Assembly: GCF_000015805.1 (NCBI RefSeq)
Contig: NC_009073.1
Location: 360,001-392,000 of the forward strand
Reading direction: 5' to 3'
DNA length: 32,000 bases
DNA from: Pyrobaculum calidifontis JCM 11548
Lineage (GTDB): Archaea; Thermoproteota; Thermoprotei; Thermoproteales; Thermoproteaceae
In this document: positions 5,260 to 12,009 of the stretch, piece by piece
How the letters are laid out: the number at the start of each line of letters is the position of its first letter
Position numbering within the stretch: the first letter of the stretch is position 1
Position numbers and translations under genes: made by a program
The notes under the pieces: model-generated
Told to the model about the DNA's origin: nothing
Databases searched by the model: none
What the model saw: the letters and a program-made list of their open reading frames with translations, nothing else

Positions 5260-5501
5260 GGCCTTCGGTAAATTTATCGGTTAGTCGAAACTCGTCTACG
5301 GTGTACACAAATTGTACAGAAAGTAGAAAAAGTGTACATTATGAATTTTAGACATTAGGAAAAAGCTATTTGATTAAGCGTTAGTCGCTTCTTTCGATAT
5401 ATTTTTGCCCTTTTGTCATGAGTAAAATTCGCATATTTAATTAATTCAAAATTATATTAAATTAAAGAAACATTTAAAAATATAAAGGGTGATGAACAAG
5501 C
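5260..5501. promoter_or_regulatory. long A/T-rich control region upstream of acs, with repeated palindromes and a TATA element
   Basis: Hand count gives 60 G+C in 220 nt over 5281-5500 (about 27 percent), against GC-rich flanks. TGTACA occurs at 5303-5308, 5313-5318 and 5333-5338. GTTAGTCG occurs at 5280-5287 and 5390-5397. The TATA-like tttaaaaatataaag (5473-5487) is centred about 22 nt upstream of ATG 5502. Confidence 0.55.
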
Positions 5502-7508
5502 ATGCAAACCATTCAAAAAGAGACCGAACTACCATTCGAGGAGTATATAATGAATAATAAGTGGCAGGGGAGGTCTATAGATGTAAAGAGCTATTGGCAA
5601 TTTCACGCCAAATCGCTTGAGAACTTTGAAGAGTTTTGGGCCTCTGTAGCCAAGGAGCTTGAGTGGTTTAAGCCGTGGGATAAGGTGCTGGATGCGTCTA
5701 ACCCGCCGTTCTACAAGTGGTTTGTTGGAGGCCGCCTCAACTTGTCCTACCTTGCGGTAGATAGGCACGTAAAGACGTGGCGTAAGAACAAGCTGGCCAT
5801 CGAGTGGGAGGGAGAGCCGGTTGACGACGCAGGGTACCCCACCGATAGGCGGAAGTTGACATACTACGACCTATTCCGCGAGGTAAACCGCGTCGCATGT
5901 ATGCTAAAGTGCAACTTTGGAATTAAGAAGGGGGACAGAATTACCCTCTACCTCCCCATGATCCCAGAGTTGCCTATAACAATGCTAGCCGCTTGGAGGA
6001 TAGGGGCTATTACAAACGTGGTATTTTCCGGCTTCTCGGCGGACGCGCTTGCTGAGCGCATCAACGACTCGCAGTCTAGGATTGTGATAACTGCCGACGG
6101 GTTCTGGCGGAGGGGGAAAGTGGTGAGACTAAAGGAGGTGGTGGACCAGGCCCTGGAGAAGGCCAGCGGCGTGGAACACGTGATTGTGTACCCAAGACTG
6201 GGGCTAAAGGACACGCCTATGACAGAGGGGAGAGACTATCTGTGGACTAAGGTTATGCAAGGCATAAAGCCAAACGTGTACATTGAGCCAGAGCCCGTTG
6301 AGAGCGAGCACCCATCCTTCATCTTGTACACCTCTGGCACCACGGGCAAGCCCAAGGGAATTGTGCACGACACCGGCGGGTGGGCCGTCCACGTATATGC
6401 AACAATGAAGTGGGTGTTCGACATACGTGACGACGATGTGTACTGGTGCACCGCAGACATTGGCTGGGTGACGGGCCACTCCTACGTCGTGCTTGGCCCA
6501 CTCCTCATGGGGGCCACAAACATAATCTACGAGGGAGCACCTGACTATCCACAGCCAGACCGCTGGTGGTCTATCATAGAGCGCTACGGCGTCACAATCT
6601 TCTACACCTCGCCCACGGCCATTAGAATGTTTATGCGCTACGGCGAAGAGTGGCCAAGGAGACACGACCTCTCCACTCTCCGCATTATACACTCGGTGGG
6701 GGAGCCCATAAATCCTGAGGCTTGGCGCTGGGCCTACCGCGTCTTAGGCGGAGAGAAAGTAGCCTTTGGCTCCACTTGGTGGATGACTGAGACCGGCGGC
6801 ATTGTGATAAGCCACGCCCCAGGCCTCTACCTAGTCCCCATGAAGCCTGGCACAAACGGCCCGCCGCTACCCGGCTTCGAGGTAGATGTTGTGGACGATT
6901 CGGGGAAGCCCGTCCCGCCGGGCGTAAGGGGGTACTTAGTCATCAAGAGGCCGTGGCCTGGGATGCTCCACGGGATTTGGGGAGACCCCGAGCGCTACAT
7001 TAAGACCTACTGGTCGAGGTTCCCGGGGATGTTCTACGCTGGCGATTACGCGATTAAGGACCAGGACGGCTACATATGGGTGCTGGGCCGCGCCGACGAG
7101 GTAATAAAGGTGGCTGGCCACCGCTTAGGCACGTACGAGCTGGAGTCCACGTTGGTGGGCCACAAGGCGGTGGCCGAGGCTGCTGTGGTGGGCGTGCCCG
7201 ACCCAGTGAAAGGCGAGGTGCCCATAGCCTTCGTGGTACTGAAGCAGGGGGTTGCCCCATCGGAGGAACTACGCAAGGAGCTTAGGGAGCACGTGAGAAA
7301 GACCATTGGCCCCATCGCGGAGCCAGCCCAGATATTCTTCGTCACAAAGTTGCCTAAGACTAGGTCTGGGAAAATAATGCGCCGCCTGCTCAAGGCCGTG
7401 GCCACGGGGGCGCCGCTCGGCGACGTGACCACGCTCGAGGACGAGACCTCGGTGGAGGAGGCCAAGAAGGCCTACCAAGAGCTGAGGGCTGAGGTGGAGA
7501 AGGCATGA
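5502..7508 (+). CDS. acs: acetyl-CoA synthetase (AMP-forming)
   Basis: 668 aa. AMP-binding signature YTSGTTGKPKG, WWMTETGG, and the C-terminal PKTRSGKIMRR motif containing the conserved catalytic/acetylatable Lys. Confidence 0.95.
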   Translation: MQTIQKETELPFEEYIMNNKWQGRSIDVKSYWQFHAKSLENFEEFWASVAKELEWFKPWDKVLDASNPPFYKWFVGGRLNLSYLAVDRHVKTWRKNKLAIEWEGEPVDDAGYPTDRRKLTYYDLFREVNRVACMLKCNFGIKKGDRITLYLPMIPELPITMLAAWRIGAITNVVFSGFSADALAERINDSQSRIVITADGFWRRGKVVRLKEVVDQALEKASGVEHVIVYPRLGLKDTPMTEGRDYLWTKVMQGIKPNVYIEPEPVESEHPSFILYTSGTTGKPKGIVHDTGGWAVHVYATMKWVFDIRDDDVYWCTADIGWVTGHSYVVLGPLLMGATNIIYEGAPDYPQPDRWWSIIERYGVTIFYTSPTAIRMFMRYGEEWPRRHDLSTLRIIHSVGEPINPEAWRWAYRVLGGEKVAFGSTWWMTETGGIVISHAPGLYLVPMKPGTNGPPLPGFEVDVVDDSGKPVPPGVRGYLVIKRPWPGMLHGIWGDPERYIKTYWSRFPGMFYAGDYAIKDQDGYIWVLGRADEVIKVAGHRLGTYELESTLVGHKAVAEAAVVGVPDPVKGEVPIAFVVLKQGVAPSEELRKELREHVRKTIGPIAEPAQIFFVTKLPKTRSGKIMRRLLKAVATGAPLGDVTTLEDETSVEEAKKAYQELRAEVEKA

Positions 7509-9571
7509 GCGTGCAGGTCAACTTTAGACAAGTCGCCTCCGTTGCCATTGTCGCGTGGTTCGGCGCCTTTTTGGAGTGGCTCGACTTTTACACATACGCC
7601 CTACTAGCTGGCTTGGTGGCCAAGATATTCTTCCCATCGGCAGACCCCATTGCTTCTCTCCTCGCCTCATTTGCGGCGTTGGCCATAGGCTTCTTGTTTA
7701 GGCCGCTTGGGGCAATAGTGTTTGGAAAAATTGGGGACCAGTTTGGCAGAAAAGTGGCGTTTATCACAGCAATGTCGCTCATGTTAGTTGGCACCCTTGG
7801 CATAGGCCTACTGCCTGGATACGCCGAGATTGGTATACTGGCGTCTGTAGGCGTCTTTATCCTGAGAATTATCCAGGGCCTGGCGCTGGGAGGGGGATAT
7901 GGAGCAGCCATTACGTACTTGGGAGAGTTTGTCCCCGAGCACAGGAGGGGCTTCTTCACTGGGTTCCTCTTCACCACGCCTGCCGCTGGCATGGCCACAG
8001 TGGGCGCGTTGATATGGCTGTTTTCCACAATGCTGGGCACTCAGCAGTACAACGCGTGGGGCTGGCGCCTCAACTTCATAGTGGCTGGCGTTATTGTGTT
8101 CATAATTGTATTGGCTATGCACCTGTTCTACAAGGAGACGCCAGTCTTCTCTATGTTGAGGGCCGTGAGAAGAGTCACGTCTGCGCCTATTAGGGAGGTG
8201 TTCTCCCGGAAGTATCTTCCCCTAGTCCTATTGGCGTGGATAGGCGTAGTGGGAGCCCACGGGCCCATCTGGTACACGAACCAGCTCTTCAATACATATT
8301 ACGTAGGCCCTAACTTCCAGAAGTATGTTGACTCAGCCACTGCCAGCGCGTTGCTGTCCACGGCCACCTACGCCGCGCTTTGGATGTACCCGCTGTTCGG
8401 CTACATCTCCGACAAGGTGGGGAGGAAGCCCATCCTTCTGCTCGGTATCTATGGCAACGCCCTGTGGTTCCCCATAGCCTTCTGGCTGATAGACCAAGTT
8501 GGCCCGCAGAAGGACTTGACGGCGCTGTGGTTGCTCTTCTGGTCAATGACCTTGTTCAATGGCATTGGTTACAGCGGGGCAATGTCCGCCTTCTTGCTTG
8601 AGCTGTTTCCGGCGAGGATTAGGCTGTCCGCCGTCTCTCTGGCATACAACTTGGGCTACGGCGTCACAGGCGGCTTAACGCCGTTTGTAATTACCTGGCT
8701 CTACTCCATTACGAAGAACGTGTACCTCTCCACTATCCTGTGGAGCACTGTGGTTCCCATGGTGATGGCGCTATGGTACGCGCTTAAGGGCCCAGAGACC
8801 CTCGGTACTAGGATATGGGCGGAGTTCGCCGCAGAGAAGTTTGCTAAGAAGACTGTCACTCTGCCTGCCACTACGCCCATTAGAGAAGTGGTGAAGGCCA
8901 TGGTGGACACCGGGGTTAAGTACGTGGTGTTGACGGGAAGTGTCGTGGGCATATTTGGGACACGTAGCCTAATTAGGGCGCTTGCCGCCGGCGCCAAGTT
9001 AGATGAGCCGGCTGGCAATTATGCGGTAAAGACGTCGTGTATTGACGCCAAGGCCCCCGTCACAGAGGTCTTCGTAGCCTTGGAACAGTACAACGTCAGG
9101 GCCGTGCCAGTGTGCGAGGGAGGGAAGCCAGTGGGCATTGTAGAGGCGAGGGAGCTTGTGAACGAGGCACTGGGCTTGAGGAGCGTGTTGAAGAAGAAGG
9201 TGGCGCTTCGCTTCAACGTTTACGATGCGGCGCCTAGGGAGCTAGTCACCATAGCTCCCGACAAGTCCCTAAAGGAGGCCATAGACCTCATGGCTAAGTA
9301 CAACATAGGCTTTCTGCCGGTGGTTGAGGACGGGAAGCTCGTGGGCGTATTATCTGAGACCGACATTGTAAAGGCGGTTGCCAAGGGCGTAGACCTAGGC
9401 AGGCCAGTGGCAGAGTTTGCAAATAAGCCCATCGTAGTAGACAAAAGCGCCACATTGAGAGATGCGGCTGAGCTCATGGTGAAGTACAACATTAGGCACA
9501 TTCCCATAGTAGAAGACGGCAAAGTGGTAGGGGTAATCTCAGTAAGAGACGTGTTAAAGGCGATAGGATAG
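7505..9571 (+). CDS. MFS transporter (metabolite:H+ symporter, MHS-like) fused to four C-terminal CBS domains
   Basis: The N-terminal ~430 aa are polytopic, with the MHS-type motifs LEWLDFYTY and GKIGDQFGRKVAF. The C-terminal ~250 aa contain four CBS repeats (for example YNVRAVPVCEGGKPVGIV, YNIGFLPVVEDGKLVGVLSETDI, YNIRHIPIVEDGKVVGVISVRDV). ATGA overlap with the acs stop. Confidence 0.85.
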   Translation: MSVQVNFRQVASVAIVAWFGAFLEWLDFYTYALLAGLVAKIFFPSADPIASLLASFAALAIGFLFRPLGAIVFGKIGDQFGRKVAFITAMSLMLVGTLGIGLLPGYAEIGILASVGVFILRIIQGLALGGGYGAAITYLGEFVPEHRRGFFTGFLFTTPAAGMATVGALIWLFSTMLGTQQYNAWGWRLNFIVAGVIVFIIVLAMHLFYKETPVFSMLRAVRRVTSAPIREVFSRKYLPLVLLAWIGVVGAHGPIWYTNQLFNTYYVGPNFQKYVDSATASALLSTATYAALWMYPLFGYISDKVGRKPILLLGIYGNALWFPIAFWLIDQVGPQKDLTALWLLFWSMTLFNGIGYSGAMSAFLLELFPARIRLSAVSLAYNLGYGVTGGLTPFVITWLYSITKNVYLSTILWSTVVPMVMALWYALKGPETLGTRIWAEFAAEKFAKKTVTLPATTPIREVVKAMVDTGVKYVVLTGSVVGIFGTRSLIRALAAGAKLDEPAGNYAVKTSCIDAKAPVTEVFVALEQYNVRAVPVCEGGKPVGIVEARELVNEALGLRSVLKKKVALRFNVYDAAPRELVTIAPDKSLKEAIDLMAKYNIGFLPVVEDGKLVGVLSETDIVKAVAKGVDLGRPVAEFANKPIVVDKSATLRDAAELMVKYNIRHIPIVEDGKVVGVISVRDVLKAIG

Positions 9572-9577
9572 CCGCTC

Positions 9578-9582
9578 TTTTT
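9578..9582 (+). terminator. oligo-T tract immediately after the transporter stop (possible archaeal terminator)
   Basis: A T5 run lies 7 nt after the TAG at 9569-9571, in the 10-nt gap between convergent genes. Weak evidence only. Confidence 0.25.
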
Positions 9583-10448
9583 CACTCTCTTAGTACCACA
9601 GCACCCACGTGGCTTAACCCAAAGCTTTTCACCTCTACACCTTCCCTCATTAGACATTCTTCTACTTCCTCTACCTCATTTACATCTAGCAAAACTACCA
9701 AGACGCCTTTTTTCGCGTAATATCCGTGCATCTGCTTCTTGCACCGTCTAATTCTCCCCTCGACTTCAGGCGTTAAAAACCCCATAACCCTTGAGAACTC
9801 GGCCGACAGCTCTAGGAAAGAGTCGTACGTCGGCTGTTCCAAAAACTTTTCTACGAGCTTAGCGCCGCGTTCTCTTAAGGCGTCCCTCAGTCGGACGAGC
9901 ATAGAGCTTGTGTCCTCTCTACGGAAGACGTGAGTCAGCGCGGCTAGTCGGCGCGGGTGCGGCACCTTGTCCACCACTCCCACCCCTGGCGCGCCGGGCT
10001 TAACTCTCACTTCTATGCCGCCCCCGTAGAATTCGGCAATTACGTCGCCTAGGCCAGTCCCCATCTCAACCTCCACAACGTGGGCCGTCTGTGCCGCCTC
10101 TATGAGGGGCCGACCCGCCAGTGCAGATGCGCCAAGGGCGGCGCCGAGGGTATACGCGGCGCTGAGGCCGTAGCCGGCGCCAAGAGGCACAGGCGCTGAG
10201 AAGCGGACGCTGGCTGACAGCCCAAGCCTCTTTAACACAGCCGAGATGTGCGGTATGGGGCCCCGCCCACCGCTGCCAGCCTCCACCTCCACCACAGCGC
10301 CGGGTTTGAGCAACACACCCACTCCTATGGAGCCAGTGGTCAGGGGGTTGTCCGTGTAGACGGGGAGCCACATCGCCGTCACGTGAAGCGGCACTAGTAC
10401 TTTTACACGGCGCCGCATGCTGCCTCCGCGGCTTTCACAAGGGCCCAC
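9582..10448 (-). CDS. pantoate kinase (archaeal GHMP-family kinase of CoA biosynthesis)
   Basis: GHMP motif PVPLGAGYGLSAAYTLGAAL. Size and operon context with ketopantoate reductase and phosphopantothenate synthetase. The start is uncertain: the internal Met at 10418 would shorten the 46-nt overlap with panE. Confidence 0.75.
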   Translation of the reverse strand: MGPCESRGGSMRRRVKVLVPLHVTAMWLPVYTDNPLTTGSIGVGVLLKPGAVVEVEAGSGGRGPIPHISAVLKRLGLSASVRFSAPVPLGAGYGLSAAYTLGAALGASALAGRPLIEAAQTAHVVEVEMGTGLGDVIAEFYGGGIEVRVKPGAPGVGVVDKVPHPRRLAALTHVFRREDTSSMLVRLRDALRERGAKLVEKFLEQPTYDSFLELSAEFSRVMGFLTPEVEGRIRRCKKQMHGYYAKKGVLVVLLDVNEVEEVEECLMREGVEVKSFGLSHVGAVVLRE

Positions 10449-11245
10449 AGGGCCTTGTTCACGGGCGCCTCTACGCCATGCCTCTCTCCCAGCCTCACGA
10501 CAGCCCCATTGATGTAGTCCACTTCGGTCCGCCTACACTGGGACAAGTCTTGCAACATCGAGGAGACGTTGTCTCTAGTGGCTTCCGCCACCCTCAGCGT
10601 CTCTTCCACGGGGTCGGCCGGCAGGCGCACTCCCACGGCCTCCGCCACTCTGCCCGCCTCCCGAGCCGCCTCGGCGGCCAGCGACTTGGCATACGGGTTC
10701 TCTACCACGACTCCGTTCTTGGCCCTTAGGAGGGCTGTGATGGGGTTTATGGCCGCGTTTATCGCCAGCTTCAGCCACCTCGCAGGCTCTATGTCTTCCA
10801 CCACCCTGACCCTGGCCCCGCCGGCCCTCAAAGCGTCGGCCACCTCGCCGGCCTCCCTCGGGAGCACGATCTCCCCCACGCCCCTGACCTCTGCCACGCC
10901 TTCAACCCTTGACACTCCGTAGGTCACCACCGCGCCGAAGCCCACGCCAAGTCTCTCCTTGAGCAACTCCAGGCCCCCAATTCCGTTCTGGAAGACGACG
11001 GGTTCGCCCCGTATCTTGTCCACCACTGCCTCTGTGTCGTAGGCCTTGACGGCGACTAGGGTGTAGTCCACTGGGGGCAACTCGTCCACCACGGCCACCT
11101 GTAGGACGTGCGTCTCCCCGCCCCACTTTAGCACATAGCGCTCTCTCCTACTCCTCGTTACCACGTGGGGCACATAGCCGGCTCTGTTGAGGAAGTACGC
11201 CAATAGAGAGCCGACGGCGCCTAGCCCAATAATGCCGAATTTCAC
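10403..11245 (-). CDS. panE: 2-dehydropantoate 2-reductase (ketopantoate reductase, PanE/ApbA family)
   Basis: N-terminal MKFGIIGLGAVGS Rossmann motif, VFQNGIGG, WLKLAINAAINPITAL, and SSMLQD...TEVDYINGAVV motifs typical of PanE. Confidence 0.88.
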   Translation of the reverse strand: MKFGIIGLGAVGSLLAYFLNRAGYVPHVVTRSRRERYVLKWGGETHVLQVAVVDELPPVDYTLVAVKAYDTEAVVDKIRGEPVVFQNGIGGLELLKERLGVGFGAVVTYGVSRVEGVAEVRGVGEIVLPREAGEVADALRAGGARVRVVEDIEPARWLKLAINAAINPITALLRAKNGVVVENPYAKSLAAEAAREAGRVAEAVGVRLPADPVEETLRVAEATRDNVSSMLQDLSQCRRTEVDYINGAVVRLGERHGVEAPVNKALWALVKAAEAACGAV

Positions 11246-12009
11246 AGCGCCACCCCCCTCTCAGCCAGCTCCACCAGCCGCTGGGAGATGCGCCTGAGGA
11301 CCCTCCGCAGATTTTCGTCGTTGTTAAAGCGTTTCACAATGGCCTCCAGCTCCTCTCTGGGCAACGCCTTGAGCTCCTCGGCCAACTTCACCATGTTTGG
11401 GACGGCCCTCACCACGTTGTCCACGATGGTTATAGAGGCGGCCCGCGCAGTGCGGGACAGTGGGTTGAGGTCCACGGCTATTACGAACTTGCCCATCTTC
11501 CTCAGCGCCTCTGTCCTATCGCCGTCTTCAAGGGGGACGAAGACCACGTCGGCCACGTAGATCCCCCTGCACGAGACTCTCCTCCTCTCGCTGAACAGCT
11601 CGGGGATGGTGCACGAGGCGTCGTCTCCCACCCCAAGCACCTCCTCGGCCCCGTGCCGCCTCAACACCTCAGCGATGAGCTCCTCCCTCTCCCTCGTCCG
11701 GTAGAATAGGTTTACCTCAACGGCGGCGCCGGTGGCCCTAGCCAGCTGCACCACGCCCTCTGGCACAAGCGCCGCCACGTTGCCGTTGACCGATATAACC
11801 GGCCTCTTCGCCGTCAGCAGTGCCGCCACCGCCGCCCTCTCCGCCTCCCACGCCTCCTCCACAGTGGCCTCGCCCAGGAGGTAGTCAAAGCACTCCCCCC
11901 TCCCATGCGCAATTAGGCCCTGAGGCACTACGTACCCCTCCCTAAACCCCTCCACAAGCCTCTCCCGCACGAGGAGAGACTCCCTCCTCGGGTGGTTGGG
12001 AGGAATCAC
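11242..12009 (-). CDS. 4-phosphopantoate--beta-alanine ligase (archaeal phosphopantothenate synthetase, PPS)
   Basis: The N-terminus IPPNHPRRESLLVRERLVEGFREGYVVPQGLIAHGRGECFDYLLGE matches the conserved archaeal PPS (COG1701) signature from memory. GTG start, with a TATA-like ttatttaa about 20-27 nt upstream. 4-nt overlap with panE. Confidence 0.85.
   Translation of the reverse strand: MIPPNHPRRESLLVRERLVEGFREGYVVPQGLIAHGRGECFDYLLGEATVEEAWEAERAAVAALLTAKRPVISVNGNVAALVPEGVVQLARATGAAVEVNLFYRTREREELIAEVLRRHGAEEVLGVGDDASCTIPELFSERRRVSCRGIYVADVVFVPLEDGDRTEALRKMGKFVIAVDLNPLSRTARAASITIVDNVVRAVPNMVKLAEELKALPREELEAIVKRFNNDENLRRVLRRISQRLVELAERGVAL

Follow-up and report, generated by a model that had tools for sequence, protein, structure and literature searches.

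We examined a 32,000-nt stretch of DNA from Pyrobaculum calidifontis JCM 11548 (contig NC_009073.1, positions 360,001 to 392,000; hereafter the window), which is part of a complete Pyrobaculum genome of 2,009,313 bp. The window was found to carry acs, the gene for acetyl-CoA synthetase (ACS) of the AMP-forming type, overlapped at its end by a gene for a permease. This permease joins a transporter core of the major facilitator superfamily (MFS), resembling the metabolite/H+ symporters (MHS), to four C-terminal CBS domains, an architecture that we refer to here as MFS-4CBS. We propose, with moderate confidence, that it is a proton-coupled importer of acetate and short-chain monocarboxylates that is gated by an adenine-nucleotide sensor. 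Its architecture, fold, motif conservation, synteny and phyletic pattern are described below; from these we infer the substrate, the import direction, the coupling ion, the ligand and the choice between activation and inhibition.

The acs-permease gene pair

The two genes and the parts of the permease that precede its CBS domains are as follows.

5502..7508, + strand: acs, an open reading frame (ORF) of 668 aa (Pfam ACAS_N, AMP-binding and AMP-binding_C; TIGR02188)
7505..9571, + strand: permease gene (MFS-4CBS), 688 aa and stop (open ORF, Pfam, NCBIfam)
7505..7508, + strand: ATGA overlap of the acs stop and the permease start (read from the sequence; kept in 11/11 close Pyrobaculum orthologues)
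7523..8788, + strand: MHS-like MFS core, residues 7-428, 12 predicted transmembrane (TM) helices (AlphaFold2, Foldseek, TIGR00883)
8789..8845, + strand: linker between TM12 and CBS1, residues 429-447 (invariant residues in a 13-sequence alignment)

The acs product scored 958 bits against the NCBIfam model TIGR02188 (acetate--CoA ligase), for which the cut-off is 725. The permease gene begins within the end of acs, the last two bases of its ATG and the following A forming the TGA stop of acs (context GGCATGAGC).

The transporter core

Pfam analysis of the permease returned both MFS_1 (E 2e-23) and Sugar_tr (E 6e-23) past their cut-offs and no match to SSF. An AlphaFold2 model, built on a 13-sequence alignment (predicted local distance difference test score (pLDDT) 78, predicted template modelling score (pTM) 0.66), showed 12 long helices over residues 7-428, followed by a short linker and four CBS units. 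Foldseek matched the MFS part to XylE, PfHT1, PiPT and SV2A over ~450-500 columns. Two motifs of the core were located, LEWLDFYTY at residues 23-31 and GKIGDQFGRKVAF at residues 74-86. More specifically, the MFS motif A of the TM2-TM3 loop (G-x-x-x-D-R/K-x-G-R-R/K) was present as GKIGDQFGRK at residues 74-83, with G74, G77, D78, G81 and R82 invariant in the family alignment.

The best NCBIfam model for the permease was TIGR00883 (metabolite/H+ symporter), which aligned end to end (residues 20-412 with profile positions 1-391) at a score of 275 bits, below the curated cut-off; TcuC was the second-best model. A permease of the second subfamily introduced below reached 350 bits with TIGR00883. 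Since this model ranks at the top yet stays under its cut-off, we call the core MHS-like: judged by sequence, it appears to be a divergent branch and not a certified member of TC 2.A.1.6. The MHS family includes the acetate carriers Deh4p and Dehp2 (PMC7419537). A phosphate transporter was also considered, PiPT being the best match by sequence among solved MFS structures, and was rejected on the comparison of the MHS model (1e-81) with the phosphate:H+ model (3e-10).

The CBS tail and linker

CBS proteins hold the ribose and phosphate moieties of adenosyl ligands with the motif G-h-h-S/T-x-x-D, and conserved Ser, Asp and Arg-His residues are typical ribose/phosphate contacts. The Pfam CBS model covered the tail of the permease in four stretches (E 2.4e-47), of which the best was 636-687, and the matching units of the AlphaFold2 model show a beta-alpha-beta-beta-alpha pattern.

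8846..8995, + strand: CBS1, ~residues 448-497, with the degenerate ribose motif GIFGTRS (Pfam, AlphaFold2)
9032..9199, + strand: CBS2, ~residues 510-565, with the degenerate motif GIVEARE (Pfam, AlphaFold2)
9218..9385, + strand: CBS3, ~residues 572-627, with the canonical motif GVLSETD, in which S617, E618 and D620 are invariant
9410..9565, + strand: CBS4, residues 636-687, with the canonical motif GVISVRD after the invariant pair R664-H665

Foldseek matched the tail of the predicted model to MJ1225 (3lfz/3kh5), to SSO3205 with AMP (3ddj) and to dozens of AMPK-gamma chains, with TM-scores, normalised to the target, of 0.64-0.69 over ~285 columns. By sequence, the closest solved relative of the tail was again MJ1225, which its depositors describe as a putative archaeal gamma-AMPK homologue, and weak matches were obtained to AcuB, MgtE and OpuCA. 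Based on the fold match to MJ1225, SSO3205 and AMPK-gamma, the tail is predicted to pack its CBS domains into a single intramolecular disc, unlike the single Bateman modules of OpuA and MgtE, which dimerise. By fold, the tail further matched ribosome-associated factors built of four CBS domains: Dri (9e7f) from Pyrobaculum calidifontis and SriA-D (9znf/9zng) from Methanosarcina acetivorans. Many stand-alone CBS-pair or four-CBS proteins of 130-260 aa, amounting to dozens of matches, are encoded per genome in the source genome and its relatives.

The linker that leads from TM12 into CBS1 (about 18 residues) is better conserved over residues 429-447 than most of the CBS tail. Specifically, G429, E431, T432, G434, R436, W438, E440 and F446 were invariant among 13 sequences of 51-100% identity, and we regard this segment as a candidate for coupling the tail to the transporter or transmitting a signal between them.

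The first-pass annotation of this DNA had described a permease start in an ATGA overlap with the acs stop, a 12-TM-like MFS core with the two MHS motifs quoted above and four CBS repeats in the C-terminal part. All three descriptions were borne out: the overlap was read directly and the 688-aa ORF is open, Pfam, the motif read and AlphaFold2 agree on the core, and the four Pfam stretches coincide with AlphaFold2 units. As to candidate ligand-binding residues in the CBS region, which it had named as a check, the motif is conserved in CBS3 and CBS4 and missing in CBS1 and CBS2.

Conservation of the gene pair within Pyrobaculum

Synteny in the genus and family was compared over 18 related genomes and the source genome. 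An intact orthologue of the permease (68-100% identity) was found in nine genomes, the source genome counted, and a broken orthologue in two; three genomes carry a member of a second subfamily, 37-39% identical to the window protein. At 14/14 informative Pyrobaculum loci, three of them from subfamily 2, the gene immediately upstream, in the same orientation, is an acs orthologue (76-92% identity); two genomes whose contigs end at the 3' end of acs (G009 and G015) were left out of this count. The ATGA overlap was kept at 11/11 subfamily-1 loci, down to 68% protein identity, and is therefore not a chance arrangement. The subfamily-2 genes have an AT-rich spacer of their own at two loci, and at the third the ATG lies within a few bases of the acs stop. 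A divergent second ACS paralogue (38-44% identity) directly follows the permease at six loci; the window has no such paralogue.

The broken orthologue of P. oguniense TE7 (G002) carries several frameshifts, and that of G013 a single break near residue 551. In the latter genome (2,222,430 bp; L111:7109-9176) the permease is split into an ORF with the MFS core and CBS1-2 and an overlapping ORF of ~147 aa with CBS3-4; next come a second acs paralogue and a pair of CBS domains standing on its own. The split may be genuine or a sequencing error. Lastly, in a genome from another family of the order (G026, L023:1-2733) acs is followed, after a gap of 55 nt, by an MHS-like permease of 429 aa that lacks CBS domains, a third form of acs-MHS pairing.

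A sister CBS module fused to ACS

Another genome of the same genus (G004) encodes an acs orthologue (L112:2553-5342, G004:C10) in the form of a 929-aa ORF comprising ACAS_N, AMP-binding, AMP-binding_C and four CBS domains. Behind this ACS-4CBS gene lie a subfamily-2 MFS-4CBS gene and then a second acs paralogue. Relatives of ACS-4CBS form a small family of 893-916 aa, with six clusters, in metagenomes. Throughout its four CBS domains the ACS-4CBS tail is collinear with those of the permeases, with 43-47% identity to subfamily 2 and ~33% to the window protein, and all four motifs are canonical both in ACS-4CBS and in the subfamily-2 permease. As these tails are collinear and related, one and the same sensor module appears to serve both the enzyme and the transporter of a single pathway, and such sharing would fit a common ligand that reports the energetics of acetate activation. 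In Bacilli, the Bateman+ACT protein AcuB binds adenine nucleotides and adjusts the activity of AcsA to energy charge (PMC13121692).

Family spread and acetate-gene linkage beyond the genus

In a protein set clustered at 90%, we found at least 120 full-length relatives of ~690 aa, all with both MFS and CBS parts. Their archaeal hosts are Pyrobaculum, Acidilobaceae, Fervidicoccaceae, Methanomethylicia bins, Archaeoglobus profundus and Ferroglobus, and their bacterial hosts Caldimicrobium/Thermodesulfobacteria and Thermodesulfovibrionales; Caldatribacterium was added by a scan that took one genome from each species. At 50% identity MFS-4CBS amounts to about four clusters among 1.84 billion representatives, and the next matches below them are plain MHS permeases of 420-560 aa with no CBS domains. 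Given this cluster number and host range, the family appears small and compact; it is, as far as the sequences sampled go, largely bound to thermophiles, present in both domains and divided into two subfamilies. Source annotations call its members 'MFS transporter' or 'CBS domain-containing protein', and some 'MHS family proline/betaine transporter-like'.

The acs gene is the immediate neighbour of MFS-4CBS in three loci of uncultured archaea (L041, L042 and L050), is divergently oriented to it at two further loci (L033 and L043), and adjoins it in an Archaeoglobales bin (L069) and in Thermodesulfovibrio (L056). In two metagenome-assembled genomes (MAGs), of Thermodesulfovibrio (L056:1695-15822) and Caldatribacterium (L048), the permease gene lies inside a large acetate cluster in which all genes point the same way: a Pat-type ACD+GNAT acetyltransferase and a sigma-54 response regulator, then acs, MFS-4CBS, a DUF294/cNMP/CBS protein, DUF485, ActP and finally a second acs. 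Three Caldimicrobium loci (L044, L061 and L064) contain genes for DUF4212, a VC_2705-family Na+/solute symporter, DUF294/CBS and an RNase_T exonuclease, with MFS-4CBS directly after them; in Pseudomonas putida, a CBS protein/exonuclease pair is among the targets of the MxtR/ErdR acetate regulon (PMC9927547). The ligases that neighbour MFS-4CBS are acetate-type ACS, scoring above the TIGR02188 or PRK00174 cut-offs. Loci with no acs link sit in Acidilobaceae, Methanomethylicia and many Thermodesulfobacteria. With linked loci in distant lineages and about 12 unlinked ones, acetate-gene linkage appears to be recurrent and to have arisen in several lineages, yet it is not universal.

The link to acs from which the first-pass annotation had argued thus proved strong within the genus and recurs in distant lineages. 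The same annotation knew of no characterised fusion of an MFS carrier with two Bateman modules in Crenarchaeota. We likewise found none characterised in the literature; the fusion itself, however, reaches beyond that group to Archaeoglobales, Thermodesulfobacteria, Thermodesulfovibrio and Caldatribacterium.

Complementary distribution with a VC_2705-type symporter

Among 31 related genomes, a VC_2705-type symporter (TIGR03648, above cut-off) was present only in G002, G012 and G018, and it occurred in 0/12 Thermoproteaceae genomes with an intact MFS-4CBS. The acs orthologue is present in G012 (86% identity) and G018 (81% identity) with no permease downstream of it, and G018 also holds a cluster of symporter, DUF294, exonuclease and acs paralogue. 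On the gene content of these genomes, the pattern looks as though one system for acetate uptake had displaced another by non-orthologous replacement.

In P. oguniense TE7 (CP003316), the MFS-4CBS gene 3' of acs is broken into at least three frames (L060:8001-9898). Downstream of this acs, at a distance of 4-8 kb, are an intact VC_2705-type symporter gene and one for DUF294/CBS (L060:13598-17597).

Proposed function and alternatives

We propose that the permease, as a secondary transporter of the MHS branch, would bring in acetate and probably other short-chain monocarboxylates that the Pyrobaculum ACS accepts. Besides acetate, the P. aerophilum enzyme uses formate, propionate, butyrate and isobutyrate (PMC7746861, citing Brasen 2005). 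The imported acid would be activated at once by the presumably co-transcribed AMP-forming ACS, the two genes being probably translationally coupled. The Bateman module made of CBS3 and CBS4 would bind an adenosine-containing ligand, most likely AMP, ADP or ATP, and ligand binding would adjust transport through the invariant linker after TM12. Weak-acid influx would thereby be matched to the capacity of the cell for ATP-consuming activation. Sensing of adenine nucleotides by the tail is indirectly supported by the predicted fold, the CBS3 and CBS4 motifs, the ACS-4CBS fusion and the analogy with AcuB.

Several observations weigh against this proposal. The score of 275 bits with TIGR00883 falls below the curated cut-off of 443; CBS1 and CBS2 of the window subfamily have no ribose-binding motif; and the AlphaFold2 output came with no inter-domain confidence, the TM-CBS interface lying outside the evidence of the model. 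About 12 informative loci have housekeeping neighbours only (SRP54, EngB-like GTPase, MiaB-like radical-SAM and PIN), and the count that suggests complementarity with the VC_2705-type symporter comes from few, related genomes. In the literature on MFS, CBS and acetate or ACS, we found no paper on the MFS-4CBS family; a Pyrobaculum small-RNA study names MFS and CBS genes, but these are unrelated. Moreover, MFS-4CBS co-occurs in bacteria with ActP or VC_2705 symporters in one cluster, so that permease and symporter may carry different substrates.

This co-occurrence with dedicated acetate symporters would suit a carrier of another carboxylate (pyruvate, lactate, a C4-C6 di- or tricarboxylate or an aromatic acid) that is linked to acs through shared regulation of organic-acid catabolism. 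The place of TcuC as second-best model, the transport of 2-oxoglutarate, citrate, tricarballylate and shikimate by characterised MHS members, and the second divergent acyl-CoA synthetase directly downstream in several Pyrobaculum species point the same way. We nevertheless consider such a substrate unlikely, as the adjoining ligases are of the acetate type by the TIGR02188/PRK00174 cut-offs and the permease is lost or decayed where the VC_2705 monocarboxylate-type symporter occurs. It is also rather improbable, in our view, that acetate or a short-chain acid is transported but the tail binds some other adenosyl ligand, such as CoA/acetyl-CoA, S-adenosylmethionine (SAM) or diadenosine tetraphosphate (Ap4A), or serves oligomerisation or thermostability only. 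The conserved Ser, Asp and Arg-His residues are typical of ribose/phosphate contacts, and the closest structures (SSO3205 with AMP, AMPK-gamma and MJ1225) bind adenine nucleotides. Set against this, a wide range of adenosyl ligands bind to CBS domains, the window subfamily has only two sites of four that are not degenerate, and AcuB has also been reported as an Ap4A-dependent adaptor (PMC13039410).

An osmolyte transporter of the proline/betaine type, with a CBS tail that senses ionic strength as the C-terminal domain of ProP or the CBS domains of OpuA do, seems very unlikely. The ProP equivalog (NF007927) is among the better NCBIfam matches, and some sources use the label 'MHS family proline/betaine transporter-like'; at 194 bits, however, this model stays far under its cut-off of 544 and is outscored by both the generic MHS model and TcuC. 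Furthermore, osmoprotectant genes were seen in none of the neighbourhoods examined, where the linkage is to acs, ActP, DUF294 and Pat, and the sister CBS module sits on ACS, an enzyme with no osmotic role. Least probable of all appears an efflux valve that would let acetate or a different weak acid out of the cell at times of low energy charge or low capacity for activation. MFS symporters are reversible, and Pyrobaculum also forms acetate via an ADP-forming synthetase, but the permease is paired with an AMP-forming, assimilatory ACS and occurs in uptake-type clusters (ActP, DUF485 and Pat). A gated importer of acetate and short-chain monocarboxylates is the function that we retain in the comparisons below.

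Comparison with known systems

Cytoplasmic Bateman modules gate OpuA/OpuC, MgtE, ClC and CNNM/CorC in response to ionic strength, nucleotides or Mg2+. These proteins differ from the permease in having other membrane folds (ABC, MgtE, ClC) and one Bateman module per chain, which dimerises, whereas here a four-CBS disc is predicted on an MFS carrier. AMPK-gamma, MJ1225 and SSO3205 are closer to the tail, with four tandem CBS domains in one chain, one disc and degenerate sites, and they bind AMP, ADP or ATP; they are, however, soluble subunits or stand-alone proteins, while the module described here belongs to the same chain as a transporter or, in relatives, as ACS. ProP of E. coli likewise combines an MHS core with a C-terminal cytoplasmic regulatory extension, but that extension is a coiled coil where the permease ends in CBS domains, and the gene context of the permease is unrelated to osmoprotection.

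On the side of acetate metabolism, Deh4p and Dehp2 of Burkholderia/Paraburkholderia (MHS, TC 2.A.1.6) are, like the proposed importer, MFS carriers of acetate and small monocarboxylates (PMC7419537). By their descriptions they have 11-12 TM helices, a CBS tail goes unmentioned, and they belong to mesophilic bacteria in which they are linked to haloacid dehalogenase genes. ActP and VC_2705 symporters of the SSS type, such as ActP of E. coli and of Haloferax volcanii, share with the permease a genomic partnership with acs; in contrast to the MFS permease they are SSF proteins of LeuT-like fold with no fused sensor and with small partners, DUF485 or DUF4212. AcuB of Bacillus/Geobacillus resembles the CBS tail in being a CBS-based sensor of adenine nucleotides that tunes ACS to energy charge (PMC13121692), but it has one Bateman module and an ACT domain, acts indirectly via the deacetylase AcuC and is attached to neither a transporter nor ACS.

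Transporters gated by CBS domains, acetate carriers of the MHS family and CBS-type adenylate sensors acting on ACS were each already known. What is new is that these come together on one MFS carrier, that hyperthermophiles systematically pair it with acs, and that a sister fusion, ACS-4CBS, exists. We know of no transporter to which acetate uptake in hyperthermophilic Crenarchaeota has been assigned. The archaeal acetate carriers in the literature searched are the SSS protein ActP of Haloferax, that of H. volcanii being a characterised acetate transporter, and an AceTr protein of Methanosarcina (PMC7746861). A nucleotide-gated MFS acetate permease, if true, would fill this crenarchaeal gap and would provide a case of an AMPK-gamma-like sensor linked directly to a secondary transporter. 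The ACS-4CBS fusion, in turn, suggests direct allosteric control of the ATP-costly acetate switch, for which bacteria use lysine acetylation (Pat or AcuABC). A wider scenario that we put forward only tentatively is that an AMPK-gamma-like four-CBS energy sensor has been grafted, in the same neighbourhood, onto both an acetate permease and ACS in Pyrobaculum and thermophiles related to it. Energy charge would then gate uptake and activation directly and independently of acetylation, and MFS-4CBS would be a third kind of archaeal acetate transporter beside the SSS-type ActP and AceTr.

Flanking regions of the gene pair

Upstream of acs the window contains one further feature of the pair.

5260..5501, + strand: AT-rich spacer 5' of acs, 242 nt (read from the sequence)

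Because the permease start overlaps the acs stop and no second long gap precedes it, this spacer is the probable promoter and control region for both genes. It contains the palindrome TGTACA three times (5302, 5313 and 5333); across the 32-kb window, 16 copies of this hexamer are found. The palindromes were not seen in the AT-rich spacers 5' of the subfamily-2 permease genes L012 and L013, and we therefore make no claim of a shared operator.

On the 3' side, the window permease is followed by a convergent operon for pantoate kinase, ketopantoate reductase and PPS (9582-12009). A functional tie between the permease and this CoA-precursor operon was considered and rejected, since the operon lies on the opposite strand and the adjacency is unconserved. 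Several other Pyrobaculum genomes have the second acs paralogue 3' of the permease in place of the CoA-precursor operon.

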